64,000 nucleotides of DNA, from the NCBI GenBank assembly GCA_964419675.1, contig CAYQPN010000003.1, positions 75,985-139,984 of the forward strand, in the 5' to 3' direction. Position 1 is the first letter of the stretch. Every line of letters starts with the position of its first letter. The position numbers and the translations under genes are program-made. The notes beneath the pieces were generated by a model. That model made no database searches and had not been told where the DNA came from. It worked only from the letters and a program-made list of their open reading frames with translations. The DNA is from an uncultured Candidatus Saccharibacteria bacterium. GTDB lineage: Bacteria > Patescibacteriota > Saccharimonadia > Saccharimonadales > SZUA-47. Of this stretch, positions 2,041-27,952 are shown one piece after another.

Positions 2041-2100
2041 TGTCTCTAGGTTATTTTTTAGCTTTTGCATTTTAAAAGTAGTAGTTCATACTTAAGCGTA

Positions 2101-3270
2101 ATGGACATGATAAGAAAATTTACTATTTATCTTTGCCTGTTGCTTTACCGAACTCTGCTTGTTTTCTTAGTAACTTTAGGCGCGAGTGTACTGCTTGCAA
2201 GAGACAGCAACTATATTAAGGATGTATTGGTGGGTCAAGATGTATATAGCAAATTTGTGCCGGCACTAATAGAAGCAAACATCGCCCAACAAAACCAAAC
2301 GGTTAGTTCAATCCCACTTGAGGACCCTAAGGTCCAAGAAATATTCACTAAAGCCTTTCCAGCAGAAGACCTTCAATTAGCAAGTGAAACTATTATTAAT
2401 AGTGCCTATTCTTGGCTTGAAGGGGATAGTTCTACTTTTGATTTTAGAGTTGACTTCACAAAGAATAAAGAAGCTCTAGCCAGTGGTTTGGCAAATTACG
2501 CCTTTAACCGGTTGGAGTACTTACCAACCTGCAATATAATCCCTGAGTCTATCGACCCCTTCACAACTAACTGTCTACCAGAAAATATTGACCTAGTCAG
2601 CGAAAAACAAAGTTTCAAAGATTTAATCACTAACACCGACGGGTTCTTAGAGAACCCAATAATAACTCAAGAATCCTTGCCCAAAGACGGCAGGGGGCGA
2701 ATATTCTCAAATCAATACCCTGAAATGCCAGTTTATTACTCGTTAATGTTTGTATCTATACCAATTCTTGCTGGAGTGATTTTACTACTGGCAATTTTAG
2801 TAGTCTTTTTAAGCCGTTCTCTAAGACGGGGTATACGTAAAATTGGTCTAAGCACCGCTACGGTATGTTTCAGCTTAATCCTTTTTACAGTCATTTTTGT
2901 TTTTGTTTTACCTCTGTTCACTAACTCACTACCTATACTGCAAACCTCTGATCAGGGAATTGATGGGCTGTTGAATAGTGTCAGTAAAGCCATAGGTAGA
3001 GATTATTCTATTGCAATGATTAAAATTGGCGTACCAATTCTTCTTGGTGGTCTGCTAATTTTTGGCATAGAAAAACTTACCAGGCCTAAAGTAAACTACA
3101 AAACTGCTTCAAAGAAATCCGGTCTTTCCAGCAGTAATGAGCCTAAAATTAAAGGTCCTACTAAATCAAAAATCGTAAAAAAGCGTCCTCCCGTACAGTC
3201 CAGCGAATCTAGTGACACCAAACCTGCAAAAAGACTAAAGAACAAAAAGTATCGTACAATACCTAAATAG
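2101..3270 (+). CDS. hypothetical multi-pass membrane protein with Lys-rich C-terminal tail
   Basis: ORF 2065-3270 (TTG); first ATG at 2101 (MDMIRKF...). N-terminal TM, a large loop, three C-terminal TM helices, then a basic tail (KKRPPVQSS...KRLKNKKYR). Confidence 0.5.
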   Translation: MDMIRKFTIYLCLLLYRTLLVFLVTLGASVLLARDSNYIKDVLVGQDVYSKFVPALIEANIAQQNQTVSSIPLEDPKVQEIFTKAFPAEDLQLASETIINSAYSWLEGDSSTFDFRVDFTKNKEALASGLANYAFNRLEYLPTCNIIPESIDPFTTNCLPENIDLVSEKQSFKDLITNTDGFLENPIITQESLPKDGRGRIFSNQYPEMPVYYSLMFVSIPILAGVILLLAILVVFLSRSLRRGIRKIGLSTATVCFSLILFTVIFVFVLPLFTNSLPILQTSDQGIDGLLNSVSKAIGRDYSIAMIKIGVPILLGGLLIFGIEKLTRPKVNYKTASKKSGLSSSNEPKIKGPTKSKIVKKRPPVQSSESSDTKPAKRLKNKKYRTIPK

Positions 3271-3390
3271 AAACATCTTTGGTAATGAATCCCGTTAGAG
3301 CCTTTACTGGCTTATAAAAAACACGGAAAACTGATATTGTAAGTTAGATGTTAATGATATGTAGTAAGGCGTAAGGGAGGCTCTAACGGG

Positions 3391-4035
3391 ATGAAGATAG
3401 GGATTGTTGGGTCAGGGGATGTAGCTAGAAGCCTAGGGGATGGGTTGGCTGAACTTGGCCACGATGTAATGATTGGTACGCGAGACGTAAAAAAAAGCGA
3501 ACTAAAAGAGTGGCATAAAAAGAATGACAAGCATAAATCACTAGGTAGTACCACGGAAGCTGCCAGCTACGGTGATATAGCCATCCTGGCGACTGCCTGG
3601 CATGCCACTGAAGACGTTTTAGCTCAGATAAGGCCAGAGCTAGCGGGTAAGGTAGTGTTGGACGTAACAAACCCCTTGAAATTTAATGACGACGAAGCAC
3701 CAGAGCTTTCTGTGGGTCATACTATTTCTGGTGGTGAGATTGTTCAGCAAAGTCTACCAGATAGCCACGTGGTTAAAACCCTTAATATCATTAGCCACAC
3801 TAACATGGTCCAACCAAAATATCCGTCAGGTACACCAACTATGTTTATGTGTGGTAACAATCAATCTGCCAAAGACCACGCCCGTGAATTATTAGCTCAA
3901 ATGGGATGGTCGGATGTTGTAGACATCGGTGGAATTGAGAAAAGTAGGTTGCTAGAACCGATGTGCCTACTTTGGATTGAATACGGGGTAGCCCGCGACA
4001 CCTGGGAACACGCAATTTCAATTTTAAAGAAATAG
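3391..4035 (+). CDS. NADPH-dependent F420 reductase-like / NAD(P)-binding oxidoreductase
   Basis: 214 aa. N-terminal Rossmann motif MKIGIVGSGDVARSLG, with overall resemblance to the NpdG/F420_oxidored family. GGAGG-like RBS upstream. Confidence 0.65.
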   Translation: MKIGIVGSGDVARSLGDGLAELGHDVMIGTRDVKKSELKEWHKKNDKHKSLGSTTEAASYGDIAILATAWHATEDVLAQIRPELAGKVVLDVTNPLKFNDDEAPELSVGHTISGGEIVQQSLPDSHVVKTLNIISHTNMVQPKYPSGTPTMFMCGNNQSAKDHARELLAQMGWSDVVDIGGIEKSRLLEPMCLLWIEYGVARDTWEHAISILKK

Positions 4036-4091
4036 TAGAAAATTTGATTAAGTTCTTTACTTCTTACTCTTTTTATGATATAGTAAATTAA

Positions 4092-4655
4092 ATGAAACAT
4101 TTTCCTACACGGGAAGAATTAAAAAATGCCGGGCTAACACTGCACCGGCTTAACTTAGCCGACGGGGTACAAGCACTTGGACCCGACACTTCGATAAGGA
4201 TATTAAACAAAAGAGTAAAGGGTAATTTACCGGAACATTTGAGGAGCGTGTACTCTAATAGGGTCGATTTAAGCCTCGGTCCGATTGCTCTACTAGATTT
4301 TATAAGAGTTACACCCCATAAAGAATTACCAAGTATCTTTCCGCTTGGAGTTGTTCTATCATTAGAATTTTTTCTCGATTATAAAAATGTTGCTTTTGGA
4401 TTAAAGGGGCTTGGCGTAGAAGACGGAGATACAATTACAGCTCATGCAGGTAGCCAAGACGTTGCGTTAGGTAAAGATGCTGATATTTATTCATCTAGTG
4501 GCACCTATGGTACAAGACCGGCTTCTGAACTTGTGGGGGAACTGGCGGTACCGGATTTTATTAAACCTGCTTCCGGATATATTGTAACCATTACTCAAGA
4601 TGGGCTAAACTCTGGTTTATTACATCGAAGTGAAACCGCTGTCAGTTTAGTATAA
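4092..4655 (+). CDS. hypothetical protein
   Basis: 187-aa ORF with protein-like composition and no recognised motif. Confidence 0.4.
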   Translation: MKHFPTREELKNAGLTLHRLNLADGVQALGPDTSIRILNKRVKGNLPEHLRSVYSNRVDLSLGPIALLDFIRVTPHKELPSIFPLGVVLSLEFFLDYKNVAFGLKGLGVEDGDTITAHAGSQDVALGKDADIYSSSGTYGTRPASELVGELAVPDFIKPASGYIVTITQDGLNSGLLHRSETAVSLV

Positions 4656-4656
4656 A

Positions 4657-6315
4657 TTAGGCTAATCGTTTTCTAGATCTGTCCTCGCCCATAATTTGCA
4701 TTATTATCCAGAGGTCGGGGGTATGGGTTTTTCCAGTTAATTTGACCCTGATAATTGTGGCAAAGTCGGCAATCCCACCTCTAAACTTTTCCGGGTTAGC
4801 TTTTAGCTCTTTTCTATCAAGTGTGTAACCGGCGGATTCTGCAGCCTTTTTCATGTTTTCAAACCAAGTTTCTTTATCTGCAGAATGGTCATATGTTTTT
4901 AAAAATTCTTGTGTAGCAATATTCAAATCTTCTGGGCTAACTTCAAGTTTATCTCTATCTGAGTTTTTAAATATTTCGTCATAAAAATAGCCGAATTGCT
5001 CAGGCACGTCAGACCATTTAGCAACGTCTTTTCTGGGGTTATCACCACCGCGCTCAATTGCCAAAACAGCTTTTGTATATTCAGGGTCGCTCATCATAGC
5101 ACCAAACAATTTTTCATCATGGATTTCGACCCAAGTCAGTACCTGCTTATTAAAATGTTCCTGCGACATTCGGCCAATTTCATCTTTAGCGTAATCTTCA
5201 ACCTTTTTCATATCTAGCAGAGGGGAACGGGAGCTTTTAAGTTTATCTATGCTAAATACATATTCACTTAAGTCTACATCCGGGTTTTCTCTGTACCAAT
5301 CTTCAAAGTTTGAATTTGCTAGCCCAAGAATGTATGCCTTAACAGCATTGATGGGGTAGGCGGCCTTCTGCCAAAATGCAACATCCGCCTCTGGGTCTTT
5401 TCGCTTAGACAGTTTTCGCTTTCCGCCGCCAGTTGGGTCTACAATTGATATAACTGGGGTATGAGCATACCTAAACGGCGTAATCCCAAGAGCTTGCGCA
5501 ATTTCAATATGCAGTGGGGTAGAAGGCAACCATTCTTCACCGCGAAAAATAATTGTTGACTTCATTAAATGATCATCGACAACGTGGGCCAGGTGATATG
5601 TTGGCAACCGATATTCGTCAGATTTTATTAACGGTACATCCAGGTCATTTTCCGGTACTTCCATATGACCTTTAAGTACGTCGTCAAATTCTACCCGCTT
5701 GTCATGACTGCCATTAGATTTAAAACGCAGAACAAAGGGTTTCCCGGCATCGAGTGCCTCTATAATGTCCGAGTCAGACCTATCGCGCCACAACGCCCAT
5801 TCACCGTAATAGCCTGGACGCATTTTCTTAGCCTGTTGGTCTTTAACGGCATTCTGAAGTTCTTCAGGCGTTGCAAAACACGGATAGGCACGACCTTTGT
5901 CTAGAAGCTCCAGCGCAAAACTAAAATATATATCCTGGCGTTCACTTTGAACATAAGGCCCGTATTCGCCCTTGACGCTTCCGTCAGCCTGCAGACCTTC
6001 GTCAGGACTCAACCCAAAGGACTCAAGTTGGGTTGCTATAAGTTGTTTAGAACCTTCAACTTCACGCTTTTTATCGGTATCTTCTAAGCGCAACATGTAT
6101 ACACCGTCAGATTGTCGTGCAACATACTGGCAAATTAGAGCCGTAAAGATACCACCAATATGCATAAAACCGGTTGGGGAAGGGCAAAAGCGTGTAACTT
6201 CGGCGCCTGCTGGCAAATTGCGTGGTGGGTACTTTTGCTCAATTTCAGCACGGCTCAACACCTTCAATTCTCCCAAAAGTAACTCTCGTATTCGTTGTTT
6301 TGTTTCTTCGCTCAT
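4657..6315 (-). CDS. gltX: glutamate--tRNA ligase
   Basis: 552 aa. Class I signature PSPTGFMHIGG (HIGH) and KLSKRK (KMSKS). Confidence 0.9.
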   Translation of the reverse strand: MSEETKQRIRELLLGELKVLSRAEIEQKYPPRNLPAGAEVTRFCPSPTGFMHIGGIFTALICQYVARQSDGVYMLRLEDTDKKREVEGSKQLIATQLESFGLSPDEGLQADGSVKGEYGPYVQSERQDIYFSFALELLDKGRAYPCFATPEELQNAVKDQQAKKMRPGYYGEWALWRDRSDSDIIEALDAGKPFVLRFKSNGSHDKRVEFDDVLKGHMEVPENDLDVPLIKSDEYRLPTYHLAHVVDDHLMKSTIIFRGEEWLPSTPLHIEIAQALGITPFRYAHTPVISIVDPTGGGKRKLSKRKDPEADVAFWQKAAYPINAVKAYILGLANSNFEDWYRENPDVDLSEYVFSIDKLKSSRSPLLDMKKVEDYAKDEIGRMSQEHFNKQVLTWVEIHDEKLFGAMMSDPEYTKAVLAIERGGDNPRKDVAKWSDVPEQFGYFYDEIFKNSDRDKLEVSPEDLNIATQEFLKTYDHSADKETWFENMKKAAESAGYTLDRKELKANPEKFRGGIADFATIIRVKLTGKTHTPDLWIIMQIMGEDRSRKRLA

Positions 6316-13610: not shown

Positions 13611-13985
13611 ATGAAACCAAGAATACTATGTATTGAAGACGAACTATTTATAAGCGAGCTATACACCCGCGCGCTTGAAAATGCCGGATATGATGTTCGT
13701 GTTATTGCAGACGGTCAGGAAGGCTTGCAGGAAGCCCTAGCGGGTAACTACGACATAATCCTACTTGATATCATGCTTCCGACAATGAATGGCGTAGACA
13801 TGCTTAAACTTATGCGTAGCCCAACCGTTAATCCACCGCTCGTAAGCAAAATTATCATTACTACAAATCTTGATCAAAAAGAAGAAATACGCAAACAGGT
13901 TGAACAGATGGCCGACGGCTACTTAATAAAAGCTGAGATTACTCCCCGTGAACTAGTAACATACATCCAGCAAGTTACACAGTAA
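13611..13985 (+). CDS. single-domain response regulator
   Basis: 124 aa starting 4 nt after the kinase stop. ILCIEDE, DIILLDIMLP, GYLIKA. No output domain. Confidence 0.85.
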   Translation: MKPRILCIEDELFISELYTRALENAGYDVRVIADGQEGLQEALAGNYDIILLDIMLPTMNGVDMLKLMRSPTVNPPLVSKIIITTNLDQKEEIRKQVEQMADGYLIKAEITPRELVTYIQQVTQ

Positions 13986-13987
13986 GT

Positions 13988-14016
13988 TTCGATCATTGTT
14001 GATTATCAGATATAAT
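13988..14016 (+). promoter_or_regulatory. candidate sigma70-type promoter (copy 1 of the TTATCAGATATAATA element)
   Basis: TATAAT at 14011-14016, preceded 17 nt upstream by TTCGAT. The 15-mer TTATCAGATATAATA recurs at 14306-14320 in front of tRNA-Glu. Confidence 0.35.
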
Positions 14017-14024
14017 AAACCAAG

Positions 14025-14255
14025 CTGTAGCCATTCCAAATTCAAGAGAGGATTCTTGAATTTGAGAGGAATGGCTTGTGTGACCAAGTCATTGTTTAAC
14101 AAAAAGTAACGTCTTTGTTAAACTTGACAGGGCATCAAGTCATGACGAGGTCCCATCGTCTAAAGTGAAGACCGCCAGTGGCGGTATGCAAGACCGGAAG
14201 CGCGACGGCGCTGAGGTGGGGTCGACCAATTCGCTACCGAGCGAATATGGGTGAC
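14025..14255 (+). ncRNA. candidate structured RNA: two long hairpins followed by a tRNA-Glu-derived, tRNA-like element
   Basis: Hairpins at 14029-14076 (AGCCATTCC.AAATTCAAGA/TCTTGAATTT.GGAATGGCT) and 14088-14128 (GTTTAACAAA/TTTGTTAAAC). From 14149, 15 nt are identical to the tRNA-Glu 5' end. Acceptor-like pairing GGTCCCA (14149-14155) / TGGGGTC (14217-14223) is followed by GACCA. There is a D-arm-like GTCT/AGAC, and internal hairpins at 14171-14185, 14200-14211 and 14229-14246. Confidence 0.35.
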
Positions 14256-14290
14256 TAGGACATCTTAACCGTTAGTCAACAATTTATCAC

Positions 14291-14319
14291 TAAACTTACA
14301 CTTTATTATCAGATATAAT
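14291..14319 (+). promoter_or_regulatory. candidate promoter of tRNA-Glu (copy 2 of the TTATCAGATATAATA element)
   Basis: TATAAT at 14314-14319, 15 nt upstream of the mature tRNA 5' end. Confidence 0.4.
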
Positions 14320-14334
14320 ATACAAGCCTAATAC

Positions 14335-14409
14335 GGTCCCATCGTCTAACGGTTAGGACACTAGATTCTCAATCTAGCAATACGAGTTCGATTCTCGTTG
14401 GGATCACCA
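14335..14409 (+). tRNA. tRNA-Glu (anticodon CTC), CCA encoded
   Basis: Manual cloverleaf. Acceptor GGTCCCA/TGGGATC, D-arm GTCT-AACGGTTA-GGAC, anticodon arm CTAGA-TTCTCAA-TCTAG, T-arm ACGAG-TTCGATT-CTCGT, then discriminator A plus CCA. Confidence 0.93.
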
Positions 14410-14414
14410 AATAA

Positions 14415-14446
14415 AATTGCTCACTGTTAAGTGAGCAATTTTATTT
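14415..14446 (+). terminator. rho-independent terminator after tRNA-Glu
   Basis: Perfect stem AATTGCTCAC / GTGAGCAATT with loop TGTTAA, followed by TTATTT. A-rich on the 5' side, so potentially bidirectional. Confidence 0.7.
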
Positions 14447-14454
14447 GATAATTA

Positions 14455-14596
14455 CCCAAACGAGAAGCGAACTCGACAAGCGAGTCCAACGAGCGGAGTT
14501 CGAAGACAAGTGCAGTGAAGAGAAAGCGCGAAGCATTTTCTTTGAACAAGCGCAGGCGCATCCGCCCAAGGCGGATATTCTCGCTTTGGATCACCA
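14455..14596 (+). other. structured leader-like element ending in a degenerate copy of the tRNA-Glu 3' end
   Basis: ATTCTCGCTTTGGATCACCA (14577-14596) matches the tRNA 3' end ATTCTCGTTGGGATCACCA (14391-14409) with one indel and one substitution. CCAAACGAGAA (14456-14466) can pair with TTCTCGCTTTGG. Internal helices are CGAACTC/GAGTTCG and ATCCGCC/GGCGGAT. The element ends 18 nt before the ATG at 14615. Confidence 0.3.
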
Positions 14597-14614
14597 TTTT
14601 GATATTATTGTCAT

Positions 14615-15187
14615 ATGACCGTGATTCATAAGTTCAGCCCCTTAGTATTACTAACTTTATCTCAAATACTCTGGTGGGGCTCTCTTGCTGTCTGTTATTT
14701 AGTGAATCCGTCTGTATTGAATAGTGGTGAAGTTATAAGTCTCTACGGAACATTTCCGGAGACTATGTGGATATTTGGGTTTGGACTCGTGAGTAGCGGG
14801 ATCCTCACTCTTGTGCTGGCAAGTCATCTTAAGCACCAAAAGTATCTTAAAATTACTTTAATTATTGTTGGTTTGTGCTCAATATTATTGCCGTTTTTTA
14901 GACTAAACTCTGGGAATGTTAATTTTCTGTTTCACGCGGTATTCTCGGGTGCTATATTCTTCTGCGAAGCGTTAGGGCTCTTATTTGTTAACTTAAAACT
15001 TAGAAAGAGTTACTATAAATATTTTTCTGCTTTCATGACAATCTGTATTCTCGTACTATTTTTAAGTCTTGGTGAAATTGGGATACTTAATCTATTACTG
15101 GCTAGCGAGTTTGCAGTACCGATTATCTTTGGTGCATGGTTGCAAGTGATAGCTAGACGGGAAGATGTTTTTTCTGTATTAGCCTAA
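14615..15187 (+). CDS. hypothetical multi-pass membrane protein
   Basis: 190 aa with about six hydrophobic helices. No motif recognised. Confidence 0.5.
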   Translation: MTVIHKFSPLVLLTLSQILWWGSLAVCYLVNPSVLNSGEVISLYGTFPETMWIFGFGLVSSGILTLVLASHLKHQKYLKITLIIVGLCSILLPFFRLNSGNVNFLFHAVFSGAIFFCEALGLLFVNLKLRKSYYKYFSAFMTICILVLFLSLGEIGILNLLLASEFAVPIIFGAWLQVIARREDVFSVLA

Positions 15188-15206: not shown

Positions 15207-16052
15207 CTATGCAACTAACAGCTTTTGAATGTGTAGTCCGTCAAGACGATCGACATTCTGATGAATATTTGACAGCATAAGAGGTTTATAAATATTCAAC
15301 CGATTATAGTGTGCCACTAGTGGTGCGGTACCAATCACAAATAACGGAATTTTTGACTGGCCCAAAGCTCTATCCACACCCTTAGCAACATTTCTGATAA
15401 AAGTATCTTCAAGCATTTTACTTCGATCTTTATAGCCACCGTGACCATGAAAGGCCTCAGAATTCTTGATGCCTCCAAGTCCAACCATATGAGTTTGCAA
15501 ATCCTCGCCAGGTTCGTCTAGGTGCAAAGACTTTTTCAAATCTTCCGGAATCTTTTTTTCGGCAATACGAGTAACAGATGCATCGTTCCTAACTCTAAAG
15601 AGACGAGTATTTTTTTTACTAAGCGCTAGAATAAAATGATTATGAAGAGTTTCTGGTTCCAAGATGCTCAAAGGTTCAACCACAAAACGAACACCAACAA
15701 AAATTCGCTGTTCAAAGCTATGATTAATTCTAAATTTATAAATTGCTTCATCATTTATGAATATAGCCAGACCTTTTGACTGAGATTCCCAGAAAAGAAG
15801 TTCGTCTATCATTTTTCTTGCTAGCTCAACCCATTTTGTATCTTTTTTTACCTCTAACGGCATAAAGTTGCCTAAGGCCATTTGTTTGGCAGACCTAAGA
15901 GCATTTTTAAAGACAATTCTATTTGATTCTGTACCAGAAAAACCCGGCTTCATAGGCAAATAAATCGATATGCTTGGCGTTGATTCTTGTCTGGCTAATT
16001 TGTTTATTGTATAAGGCGTAATCGTATTAATCATAATCACCACCACACTCAA
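15207..16052 (-). CDS. eRF1-like (baeRF-family-like) protein, hypothetical
   Basis: 281 aa. The N-terminal pattern PSISIYLPMKPG...ESNRIVFKNALRSA and overall layout match my recollection of bacterial eRF1-like baeRF families. No GGQ motif seen. Assignment from memory only. Confidence 0.4.
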   Translation of the reverse strand: MSVVVIMINTITPYTINKLARQESTPSISIYLPMKPGFSGTESNRIVFKNALRSAKQMALGNFMPLEVKKDTKWVELARKMIDELLFWESQSKGLAIFINDEAIYKFRINHSFEQRIFVGVRFVVEPLSILEPETLHNHFILALSKKNTRLFRVRNDASVTRIAEKKIPEDLKKSLHLDEPGEDLQTHMVGLGGIKNSEAFHGHGGYKDRSKMLEDTFIRNVAKGVDRALGQSKIPLFVIGTAPLVAHYNRLNIYKPLMLSNIHQNVDRLDGLHIQKLLVA

Positions 16053-27155: not shown

Positions 27156-27204
27156 ATTGTATCACACTAATGCTTAACTGTCAATGAGACTCCTAGCAAT
27201 GTTA

Positions 27205-27800
27205 GGCCTATAGAGGGTGAGGACTGCCAGTGGCAGTACGCAAGAGAATCTAACTGATTTTGAACTTGTTCAATAGTCAAGTTAATTCTGTGGTCACGCT
27301 AGCGTGACTGGGCACCGCTTGGGATGTCCTCCAAATAAATAAGAGTCTACAGAGGTGAGATATGCCTGTGGCATATCGGAACCCACAGACTGATTACAAG
27401 CTTGCTTGAAGTCATGTCGAGGGCGGGTCGAGACTCGGCTGACTTTAGTCACCGAGATCGTGACGAGGGCACCGCCGGCTGTCTACCCCCAATAAAAAGA
27501 GCCTCTAGAGGGGGTGGGCACCGCTAGAGGCTCATTACACCCTTCAACCCACCTTGAAGGCTCCTTAATGCTATCTCGCAATAAGCACTAAGCCCACTCA
27601 ATGGTATTTCCGCTATTAAACTCACAGCTCAAATAAAACGAGGGAGTAATACGGGGTTAAAGGGGATTTACTACTCATCAGCAAATCAAATGATTAACTG
27701 GTGACCAGTAAAACTGTCTTAGAGCTTCCACCGCAAAACGGTGAAAAGCTTGAAGGCGTGGAGGGTAACAACGACTTGCAGGCCAGACTCTAAAACATAA
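27205..27800. ncRNA. candidate large structured non-coding RNA region (class unknown, strand undetermined)
   Basis: The 776-bp gap has no ORF of 60 aa or more. Many perfect 5-10 bp helices are present, including nested domains and a pseudoknot-compatible arrangement (coordinates in findings). GGGCACCGC occurs three times. Confidence 0.4.
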
Positions 27801-27952
27801 ATTCTTTTCAGTCAACCGAGGTTGGTGTTAGAATTTAGGGGTAAAAGGTACGTAATGTCCTATAAATAGGACTTACAAGTTGCTATTCTAGCAAAAAAGT
27901 GTCGTTATGTCAATACTAAAATACTTTTTCGTTGTATAAGCAAAACTATATT

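Follow-up and report, generated by a model that had tools for sequence, protein, structure and literature searches.

The 64,000-nucleotide stretch of an uncultured Candidatus Saccharibacteria genome analyzed here (contig CAYQPN010000003.1), referred to as the window, carries a tRNA-Glu(CUC) gene that is preceded, on the same strand, by a partial copy of its own 5′ end joined to a block of hairpins. Comparison with related loci inclines us, with somewhat more confidence than doubt, to the view that this upstream sequence (14149-14273) is a type B member of a conserved family of structured, chimeric RNAs of ~125 nucleotides (nt) that some, but not all, Saccharibacteria encode directly ahead of tRNA-Glu(CUC) and in the same orientation. 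The family appears to be undescribed: a literature search turned up no such element described from Saccharibacteria or the Candidate Phyla Radiation, and at the Rfam 15 gathering score neither the window nor eight related loci contained anything beyond tRNA. We use "U-element" for the tRNA-Glu upstream element and "D-element" for the element downstream of tRNA-Glu; coordinates are collected in Table 1.

The locus lies between two genes, one for a stand-alone response regulator (13611-13985) and one for a DUF998 membrane protein (14615-15187). In this intergenic region, we found no conserved or family-assigned open reading frame (ORF) of ≥40 amino acids and a single real tRNA, called by both ARAGORN and the Rfam tRNA model. 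When the flanking proteins were looked up exactly, only identical copies of the same strain were returned; because the intergenic region of those contigs was identical too, they had nothing comparative to offer. Related contigs were reached via homologues of the response regulator, which carry Saccharibacteria or Saccharimonadales names and have a best identity of just 75-80%, and a second sample of 33 loci was obtained by scanning metagenome contigs with a tRNA-Glu(CTC) pattern. A histidine-kinase scan of genome contigs returned two unrelated loci and nothing else. The comparison loci are designated by L-numbers. Gene order in the relatives is DUF3048, histidine kinase, response regulator, zero to two variable genes, and then the same tRNA-Glu.

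Conservation and covariation of the upstream element

The arrangement around tRNA-Glu(CUC) varies among the relatives. In state a (L007, L015, and L115), a plain promoter precedes the tRNA; in state b (L010/L012 and L013), the promoter is followed by a two-hairpin leader fused directly to the real tRNA; in state c, the promoter, with or without the leader, is followed by a partial copy of the tRNA 5′ end, structured sequence, a second promoter-like sequence, and the real tRNA; and in state d (L016, L017, and L021), an upstream tRNA-Glu copy is complete to the T-loop, carries a hairpin insertion there, and lacks the acceptor 3′ strand. The window has state c, as do L008/9, L014, L020, L025/47, L031/35, L039, L042, L113/114, and L131, all with the same order of parts, and L028 is a truncated case that is cut off upstream with the tail present. 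Besides the window, at least 10 Saccharibacteria lineages thus have a U-element, placed 153-204 nt ahead of tRNA-Glu(CUC). In the state c alignment, the parts run GGYCCCAUC-GUCU-AA, (C/A)GUGA, hairpin H1, U(A/U)UGCAAG, hairpin H2, a run of G, hairpin H3 (whose 3′ strand is CGUGGG in the family), U-A-GGAC, and the nearly invariant tail AUCUUAACCGUU, with the junction nucleotides GUGA, GCAAG, and GG of the module conserved.

The window sequence shares each of these traits. Its copy of tRNA-Glu positions 1-15 (GGTCCCATCGTCTAA, exact at 14149-14163 and 14335-14349) lies on the same strand as the tRNA and within the 150-205 nt upstream that also holds in relatives (186 nt in the window); the GUGA, H1, GCAAG, H2, H3 module follows, in an H2/H3 form common to L025/47 and L008; and the distal GGAC and AUCUUAACCGUU are present, with the core CATCTTAACCGTT found at -75 with 0 mismatches. 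The modules fall into two types. In type A (L014, L020, L031, L039, L042, L113, and L131), H2 is long with a CUUG loop and H3 is short, whereas in type B (the window, L025/47, and L008), H2 is different and H3 bears an extra hairpin. The window matches covariance model R1 less strongly than type A sequences do, since its H2 and H3 are of type B.

Table 1. Features of the tRNA-Glu locus and module copies elsewhere in the window
Feature	Coordinates	Strand	Basis
P1, promoter-like (TATAAT 14011-14016)	13999-14020	+	direct repeat D1, 20/22 copy of pre-tRNA sequence
Leader hairpin 1: A-tract, stem, loop GAGGAU, U-tract	14029-14076	+	inverted repeat I9
Leader hairpin 2, conserved apical UUAACAAAAAGUAACGUCUUUGUUAA	14088-14128	+	inverted repeat I11
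Copy of tRNA-Glu positions 1-15: acceptor GGUCCCA, UC, D-stem GUCU, AA	14149-14163	+	15/15 identity
Three-hairpin module replacing the D-loop	14165-14256	+	R1 at 14165-14227, 29.8 bits, E about 1e-4 to 2e-5
Module part GUGA	14165-68	+	homology
Module part H1	14169-87	+	homology
Module part GCAAG	14188-92	+	homology
Module part H2, ACC/GGU closing GCGC-GACG-GCGC	14193-14217	+	homology
Module part H3, with inserted hairpin 14228-46	14220-27 with 14249-56	+	homology
D-stem 3′ strand GGAC (14258-61) and tail AUCUUAACCGUU (14262-73)	14258-14273	+	inverted D-arm copy, 12/13; repeat I8
P2, promoter-like, of real tRNA-Glu (TATAAT 14314-14319, 15 nt before tRNA)	14302-14323	+	repeat D1
Functional tRNA-Glu(CUC), encoded CCA	14335-14409	+	ARAGORN; Rfam RF00005, 64.3 bits
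Terminator-like hairpin 3′ of tRNA-Glu	14403-14452	+	inverted repeat I1, 23-nt arms, 91% complementary
D-element, minihelix-like, ends AUCACCA	14456-14596	+	repeats D4 and I2; fold z = -3.9, closing stem in minimum free energy fold
Second-locus module copy	27217-27309	+	R1 58.4 bits, E about 1e-11
Third module copy, in tandem with second-locus copy	27355-27440	+	R1 44.1 bits, E about 1e-8

Covariation was assessed on an alignment of ten type A modules, six from upstream and four from downstream elements. RNAalifold predicted H1, H2, and H3 from this alignment, with compensatory changes in 22 of the 32 pairs; in the state c alignment, it closed the three hairpins by GUCU and the distal GGAC. 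Paired cells in the ten-module alignment amounted to 91.9%, compared to 72.3 ± 1.5% in column shuffles (none of 500 reached the observed value) and 30-44% when partners were slid by one to three columns, and there were 56 double-change cells vs. 14 in shuffles. The conserved G.U pairs fit the + strand (that of the tRNA) only; one column pair (78-88) is G.U in nine of ten sequences. L131, added later, contributed a further compensatory pair in H3 (CCUGCG/CGUAGG vs. CCCGCG/CGUGGG). Compared with type A, two double changes (C-G to G-C and C-G to U-A) leave the window H3 paired, and the hairpin inserted in H3 covaries within type B (UUCGCU/AGCGAA in the window, UUGCU/AGCAA in L025, and UCAC/GUGA in L008). 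The type A comparisons, L131 included, argue strongly that an RNA structure has been selected for, or at the least a + strand structure. In the family-consistent fold, GUCU (14158-61) pairs with GGAC (14258-61) to close a four-way junction of ~125 nt.

The tRNA-derived parts are conserved as well. The copy of positions 1-15 is kept with at most one mismatch in seven of nine lineages, its 5′ 14-mer equals that of the resident tRNA in five (the module has a mean column identity of 74%), and position 3 (U or C) tracks the resident tRNA in the six lineages with an intact acceptor strand, all of which indicates that the acceptor 5′ strand is under constraint. In most U-element loci, the 13-nt core CATCTTAACCGTT is found at -65 to -75 relative to the tRNA and has no more than one mismatch; L131 has two, and L031/L035 have an extra CA after GGA. 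Likeness to tRNA is confined to positions 1-15 and GGAC: the U-element has no anticodon arm, T arm, or conserved acceptor 3′ strand. Since nothing matches these parts, the non-tRNA sequence occupies the position of the D-loop, and the U-element is not a tRNA mimic in the cloverleaf sense.

Leader, downstream elements, and recombination at the locus

The 15-mer TTATCAGATATAATA, which contains the promoter-like TATAAT, is exact at 14003-14017 and 14306-14320, within a repeat that widens to 20/22 over 13999-14020 and 14302-14323. Allowing up to two mismatches, it has three matches in the window, a number reached in none of 100 shuffles (mean, 0.29). The initial annotation, which was made from the window sequence alone, had described the element as carrying its own copy of the tRNA promoter. 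The U-element does sit behind its own 15-mer, but the duplication is specific to the window: the L014 leader is preceded by TTTACT..TAGTATACT rather than the 15-mer, and L008 is without a second copy. The sequence TCAGATATAAT is found at -27 in the window, L008, L014, and L042 and also ahead of the tRNA in L113, and L028 has a one-mismatch version of the P2 sequence (TTAGATATAAT) at -26.

Both leader hairpins noticed earlier exist, although they are not part of the tRNA-like RNA as such, as the same leader is fused straight to the real tRNA-Glu in L010 (2140-2267) and L013 (3930-4072) and stands before the U-element in six lineages. Hairpin 1 is kept in eight lineages, with compensatory changes in 7 of its 12 pairs, and the hairpin 2 sequence UUAACAAAAAGUAACGUCUUUGUUAA recurs in L008, L010, L012, and L014; L013, L025, and L031 have a different second hairpin with the apex GAAACUUGUUUUG. 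The window leader (14020-14148) is a conserved structured sequence in its own right, and the entire region 14020-14334 folds with z = -4.4. We also observed that hairpin 1 is shaped like an intrinsic terminator (A-tract, stem, U-tract) and that an invariant GACG at the 3′ end of the leader could pair with CGUC of the tRNA D-stem 5′ strand. A small ORF within the leader was dropped from consideration for lack of conservation between lineages. The leader pattern TTAACAAAAAGTWAYGTCTTTG had no match in viral contigs and none in metagenome contigs.

A repeat search revealed tRNA-derived pieces beyond those in the initial annotation: one, at 14585-14596, repeats the tRNA 3′ end (11/12) at a distance of 187 nt downstream, and two are inverted, corresponding to the T arm (14456-14475, 18/20) and to the D arm (14263-14275, 12/13; inverted repeat I8). 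With pieces found both upstream and downstream, the real tRNA has tRNA-Glu-derived sequence on either side. In the D-element, the 5′ sequence CCCAAACGAGAA pairs with the element's own 3′ UUCUCG-C-UUUGG and leaves AUCACCA single-stranded, giving an acceptor/T minihelix with an insertion of ~100 nt at the T-loop position and a 3′ end that copies the tRNA 3′ end with CCA. Homologues occur in L008, L028, and L115. Downstream elements in L014, L020, L113, and L115 have the three-hairpin module itself as the insert, with R1 scores of 83-99 bits, and L113 and L115 have two stacked downstream elements with a terminator after each, each element ending in a copy of the tRNA 3′ end. We rejected a split tRNA-like RNA in which the U- and D-elements pair by their acceptor strands, given that the window D-element closes on itself and that U-elements occur alone in L025, L031, L039, and L042 and a D-element alone in L115. 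Pairing of the two elements is disfavored because the UUUGG of the D-element, which is UUGGG in the tRNA, is compensated by CCAAA of its own 5′ strand.

Two further copies of the module lie in tandem at 27.2 kb (Table 1), within a 776-nt gene-free region (27160-27930) between a 188-amino acid ORF next to pth and dprA/topA. Copies downstream of the tRNA and at 27.2 kb imply that the module is a multi-copy RNA domain that is not tied to the tRNA-Glu gene alone. The region 27160-27930 also contains the motif GGGCACCGC three times along with further hairpins, and the tail GGGAUGUCCUCC of the first 27-kb copy is complementary to AGGACAUC of the upstream-element tail. The only Rfam hit in this region, from the segment 27373-27424, was a sub-threshold one to whalefall-1, which scored 19.1 bits where the gathering score is 37 (E = 0.036). 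Whalefall-1 RNA (RF01762) is a candidate noncoding RNA known solely from a whale-fall metagenome (PMC2864571). What is shared is a CUUG-looped hairpin with a GAGG-rich 3′ tail behind it, a weak match that we treat as a lead only; whalefall-1 matched neither the U-element itself nor the L020 and L028 copies.

Several of these loci bear marks of DNA integration. L113 and L114 are 100% identical over 2,129 nt up to the CCA of the tRNA and unrelated thereafter. In L114, the tRNA-Glu is followed by a gene for a 585-amino acid large serine recombinase (Resolvase, Recombinase, and Zn ribbon; 2089-3846, - strand) and one for a Replic_Relax protein (4071-4922, + strand). L131 (about 3130-5652) has the same downstream flank and a Replic_Relax gene, and the L114-type flank is also found in L016, L017, and L025. 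From the breakpoint at CCA and the recombinase/Replic_Relax flank, we conclude that tRNA-Glu(CTC) is an integration site in these Saccharibacteria. This status fits the variable genes on both sides of the tRNA and the downstream copies of its 3′ end; integration alone leaves the upstream 5′ fragment with its covarying module unexplained. When the D-element was checked as a possible att remnant, only 175 nt of non-coding DNA lay between the 3′ copy at 14585-14596 and the tRNA, and no recombinase gene was found among the ORFs scanned beside the window locus (10.9-18 kb, with six ORFs in 14.6-18 kb).

Searches of viral contigs gave 0 matches to the tail motif, 46 loci with the tRNA 5′ pattern (all other tRNAs, the element being in none), 18 chance matches to CCCATCGTCTARNGTGA in coding DNA, and 14 loci with two module patterns, the best of which scored 17.7 bits and none of which was convincing. 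In one IMG/VR contig (L050, about 480-560), a tRNA with the same D arm is broken after CTTTCAA by unrelated sequence and may be an intron-containing tRNA. The tandem tRNA-Glu genes of state d (L016, 5965-6190; L017, 2935-3160; and L021) are 152 nt apart, and the insertion that breaks the first copy at its T-loop, CUAAUCCCCCGA...CGGGCGGAUUU, recurs in the downstream elements of L008 and L113.

Fold of the element and competing explanations

All sequence features listed in the initial annotation are present in the window, including the 15/15 copy of the tRNA 5′ end 186 nt upstream of the real gene; derivation from tRNA-Glu is supported, and the element cannot decode. In related genomes, the U-element proved to be conserved with covariation rather than drifting freely. 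The suggestion of a repurposed RNA therefore stands, whereas that of a decaying paralog is wrong in view of homologues in at least 10 other lineages and the strong covariation of the non-tRNA part. What fared less well was the proposed shape, a compact tRNA-like RNA of ~80 nt (14149-14228) with an acceptor-type stem of 7-9 bp, a D-like hairpin, and a GACCA end, which would be processed like a tRNA by RNase P and 3′-end enzymes. The local pairings it relies on (GGUCCCAUC/GGUGGGGUC, GUCU/AGAC, and GCGC-GACG-GCGC) are possible, and the 9-bp closure GGUCCCAUC/GGUGGGGUC appears in the minimum free energy (MFE) folds of both 14149-14228 and 14149-14275. L025 and L008 hold six of eight closure pairs in the same register, two substitutions in L008 (U8 to C and C4 to U, each opposite G) keep pairing, and a version of at most 5 bp (GGYCC/GGGYC) is possible in type A. 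The closure is perfect in the window only, however, and neither the 7-bp closure, the D-hairpin, nor the GACCA end is conserved: the D-hairpin partner AGAC is lacking in four lineages (L020, L025, L031, and L039), and GCCGACGGCUGA replaces GACCA in L025 and L008. All three features overlap the family helices H1 and H3, and the closure competes with the outer pairs of H3 for 14220-14223, a helix that compensatory changes support.

The MFE fold of 14149-14228 contains the closure and the GCGC hairpin but pairs GUCU with a second AGAC (14190-93). On its own this piece has z = -1.7, and 12 of 200 shuffles fold as well, while the element at 14149-14275 has z = -2.8, with 0 of 200 shuffles as good. 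The compact model also omits the GGAC and tail (14258-73), the best-conserved sequence after the 5′ end. ARAGORN calls the real tRNA only, and the Rfam tRNA model (RF00005) has no match at 14149-14273 even at E up to 10. In the window sequence, the family-consistent fold has an energy of -46.3 kcal/mol, the MFE fold -47.7 kcal/mol, and the fold with the closure forced -44.2 kcal/mol. The family-consistent fold is thus no more than 1.4 kcal/mol above the MFE, so thermodynamics leaves the choice of fold undecided; the comparison of lineages favors the family fold. We consider the compact RNA rather unlikely and view the GGUCCCAUC/GGUGGGGUC closure as one that may form in an alternative conformer rather than as what defines the fold.

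The element could instead act in cis, as part of the tRNA-Glu precursor. In transcripts from P1, the copy of positions 1-15 and the anti-D tail would compete with the tRNA 5′ strand and D arm and so tune folding or processing, as a switch or as an attenuator with the terminator-like leader hairpin. The exact 15-nt copy and the 12/13 antisense copy of the D arm lend themselves to this, few parts of the family are better conserved than these two, leader hairpin 1 is itself conserved and has the A-tract/U-tract shape of a terminator, and no terminator separates the element from the tRNA. Yet the conserved promoter-like P2 lies between element and tRNA, so the tRNA need not depend on P1, and the tRNA is identical in genomes without the element. 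A cis-acting role would also leave the covariation of H1-H3 unexplained, as it would the module copies downstream of the tRNA and at 27.2 kb, the latter away from any tRNA; we regard it as improbable. That the whole arrangement is a scar of DNA rearrangement without RNA function, consisting of displaced tRNA fragments and integrative-element ends left by repeated site-specific recombination at tRNA-Glu, strikes us as very unlikely. Much at the locus invites this explanation: the large serine recombinase abutting the tRNA 3′ end in L114, the same flank with a relaxase-like gene in L131, a flank shared by L016, L017, and L025, the strain-level breakpoint precisely at CCA, the stacked downstream elements each with a tRNA 3′-end copy and a terminator, the upstream tRNA copy broken in the T-loop in L016, L017, and L021, the patchy distribution, and the decay in L113. 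Scars would not be expected to accumulate 56 double substitutions that keep three helices, nor strand-specific G.U pairs; copies in one genome are diverged yet structurally conserved, unlike recent insertions; and viral contigs gave no module. Known integration into tRNA genes, moreover, displaces 3′ fragments downstream, not 5′ fragments upstream.

Other candidates were set aside on specific grounds. A tRNA or recent tRNA pseudogene is contradicted by the lack of a match from the finders, the presence in at least 10 other lineages, and the compensatory changes that keep three helices. ARAGORN found no tmRNA in the window and Rfam gave no tmRNA match; no Rfam 15 covariance model for T-box leaders, YrlA/Y RNA, known small ribozymes, or riboswitches matched at the gathering score in the window or the eight related loci; and at E up to 10, Rfam matches in 13900-14700, L020, and L028 were limited to tRNA and chance-level hits. 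Diversity-generating retroelement repeats were rejected since the differences between copies are compensatory and not adenine-specific, and a hammerhead-like core, a T-loop motif, and an IS110 bridge RNA because the sequence signatures or the neighboring genes do not fit. Pairing of the acceptor 5′ strand with GUGGG was dropped in favor of the local hairpin H3, for which L020 and L131 have compensatory changes.

Several observations weigh against reading 14149-14273 as a member of a conserved RNA family. State c was found in 7 of the 29 metagenome loci with enough upstream sequence and in 5 of the 10 lineages reached via the response regulator. Close relatives (L007, L010, L013, L015, and L115) are without a U-element, and given this patchy distribution, the element must be dispensable. 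L113/114 has lost the acceptor strand and leader and has GUAA in place of GUGA, which looks like decay. The acceptor 5′ strand is conserved although no acceptor 3′ strand is. Only three distinct type B sequences are available, so the window variant of H2/H3 rests on few comparisons. A two-hexamer promoter rule listed neither P1 nor P2, both of which are consensus matches only. Finally, DNA rearrangement at this recombination hot spot may have produced part of the architecture as a by-product.

Proposed origin, expression, and resemblance to known systems

A unit consisting of the leader and tRNA positions 1-15 is common to states b and c, inasmuch as the leader precedes the real tRNA in L010/L013 and the U-element in six other lineages. 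The U-element would most likely have originated by partial duplication of a unit of promoter, hairpin leader, and tRNA 5′ end: deletion between the two 15-nt repeats of state c would yield exactly state b, and the reverse step would be the partial duplication. Transcription would start from P1. The interval 14274-14334 between the element and the tRNA contains no G+C-rich hairpin followed by a U run, making read-through from P1 into tRNA-Glu likely; the U-element is probably read through in this way, and RNase P cleavage at the tRNA 5′ end would then free its 3′ side. The tRNA-derived 5′ end and D-stem would serve as a scaffold and as a processing context, with the three-hairpin module, which recurs in other scaffolds of the genome, as the working part.

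We put forward tentatively, as a possibility that we would rate well below even, that Saccharibacteria display the module, as a new functional RNA domain, on pieces of tRNA-Glu (the D-stem upstream, the acceptor/T minihelix downstream), with tandem copies at a second locus, and that the retained parts may bring to it an RNA-processing enzyme or a protein that recognizes tRNA-Glu. In Escherichia coli, major identity elements for GluRS lie in the acceptor strand and D-stem. If true, the proposal would describe a tRNA-scaffolded RNA system of natural origin, linked to tRNA-Glu metabolism or to mobile elements that use the tRNA-Glu gene. In Saccharibacteria, as in other Patescibacteria, genomes are tiny, non-coding DNA is scarce, and few non-coding RNAs are known; here, a covariation-supported module absent from Rfam 15 is present in several copies per genome, repeatedly grafted at the D-loop or T-loop position of partial tRNA-Glu frames. 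If expressed, it would constitute a new RNA family of unusual construction, with part of a tRNA as its chassis. It also offers a handle on the evolution of the tRNA-Glu locus, an integration hot spot in these bacteria, and a caution for annotation, in that what seems a "tRNA pseudogene" beside a real tRNA can turn out to be a conserved RNA gene.

Known bacterial RNAs that resemble tRNA without decoding include the tRNA-like domain of tmRNA, YrlA (a bacterial Y RNA), and tRNA-Other of Bacillus cereus. Like these, the U-element is partly tRNA-derived, does not decode, and has extra RNA domains in place of tRNA arms. They keep a closed acceptor stem and T arm, which are read by RNase P, the CCA-adding enzyme, EF-Tu, or SmpB, whereas the U-element keeps the acceptor 5′ strand and D-stem only. 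Displaced fragments of tRNA genes occur at the ends of integrated genetic elements as att-site repeats, and the window likewise has partial tRNA-Glu copies flanking an intact gene at which relatives show integration, with downstream elements that end in a tRNA 3′ copy. Unlike att-site fragments, the U-element is a 5′ fragment that lies upstream, contains a covarying module, and is conserved across lineages. Archaeal tRNA genes can have introns at non-canonical positions, including the D-loop and T-loop, and Nanoarchaeum has split tRNA genes. The extra sequence here also sits at the D-loop (upstream) or T-loop (downstream), and pieces of tRNA-Glu are encoded apart, but removal of the module restores no tRNA, since the anticodon arm is missing, and the window D-element closes on itself instead of pairing with the upstream piece. 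The organisms here are also bacteria and are not known to have a splicing endonuclease. The engineered "tRNA scaffold" keeps a complete tRNA body with foreign RNA inserted in the anticodon arm, and the tRNA-derived stem gives the expressed insert stability and processing. The U-element similarly presents structured RNA on a tRNA-derived stem, where it may have a stabilizing role, but the frame is a partial tRNA and the insert is at the D- or T-loop position.

Two neighboring genes were also noted. A baeRF family 7 gene (bacterial archaeo-eukaryotic release-factor-like) lies just downstream of the locus in the window (15207-16052, - strand); it was absent from the equivalent position in the related loci examined, and we dropped a link between it and the element on that account. 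A class I Glu/Gln-tRNA synthetase gene (tRNA-synt_1c) is found ~3.5-4.5 kb upstream of tRNA-Glu in L008, L013, L015, L113, and L115, where the conserved order is synthetase (- strand, at the start of the locus), DUF3048, kinase, regulator, and tRNA-Glu.

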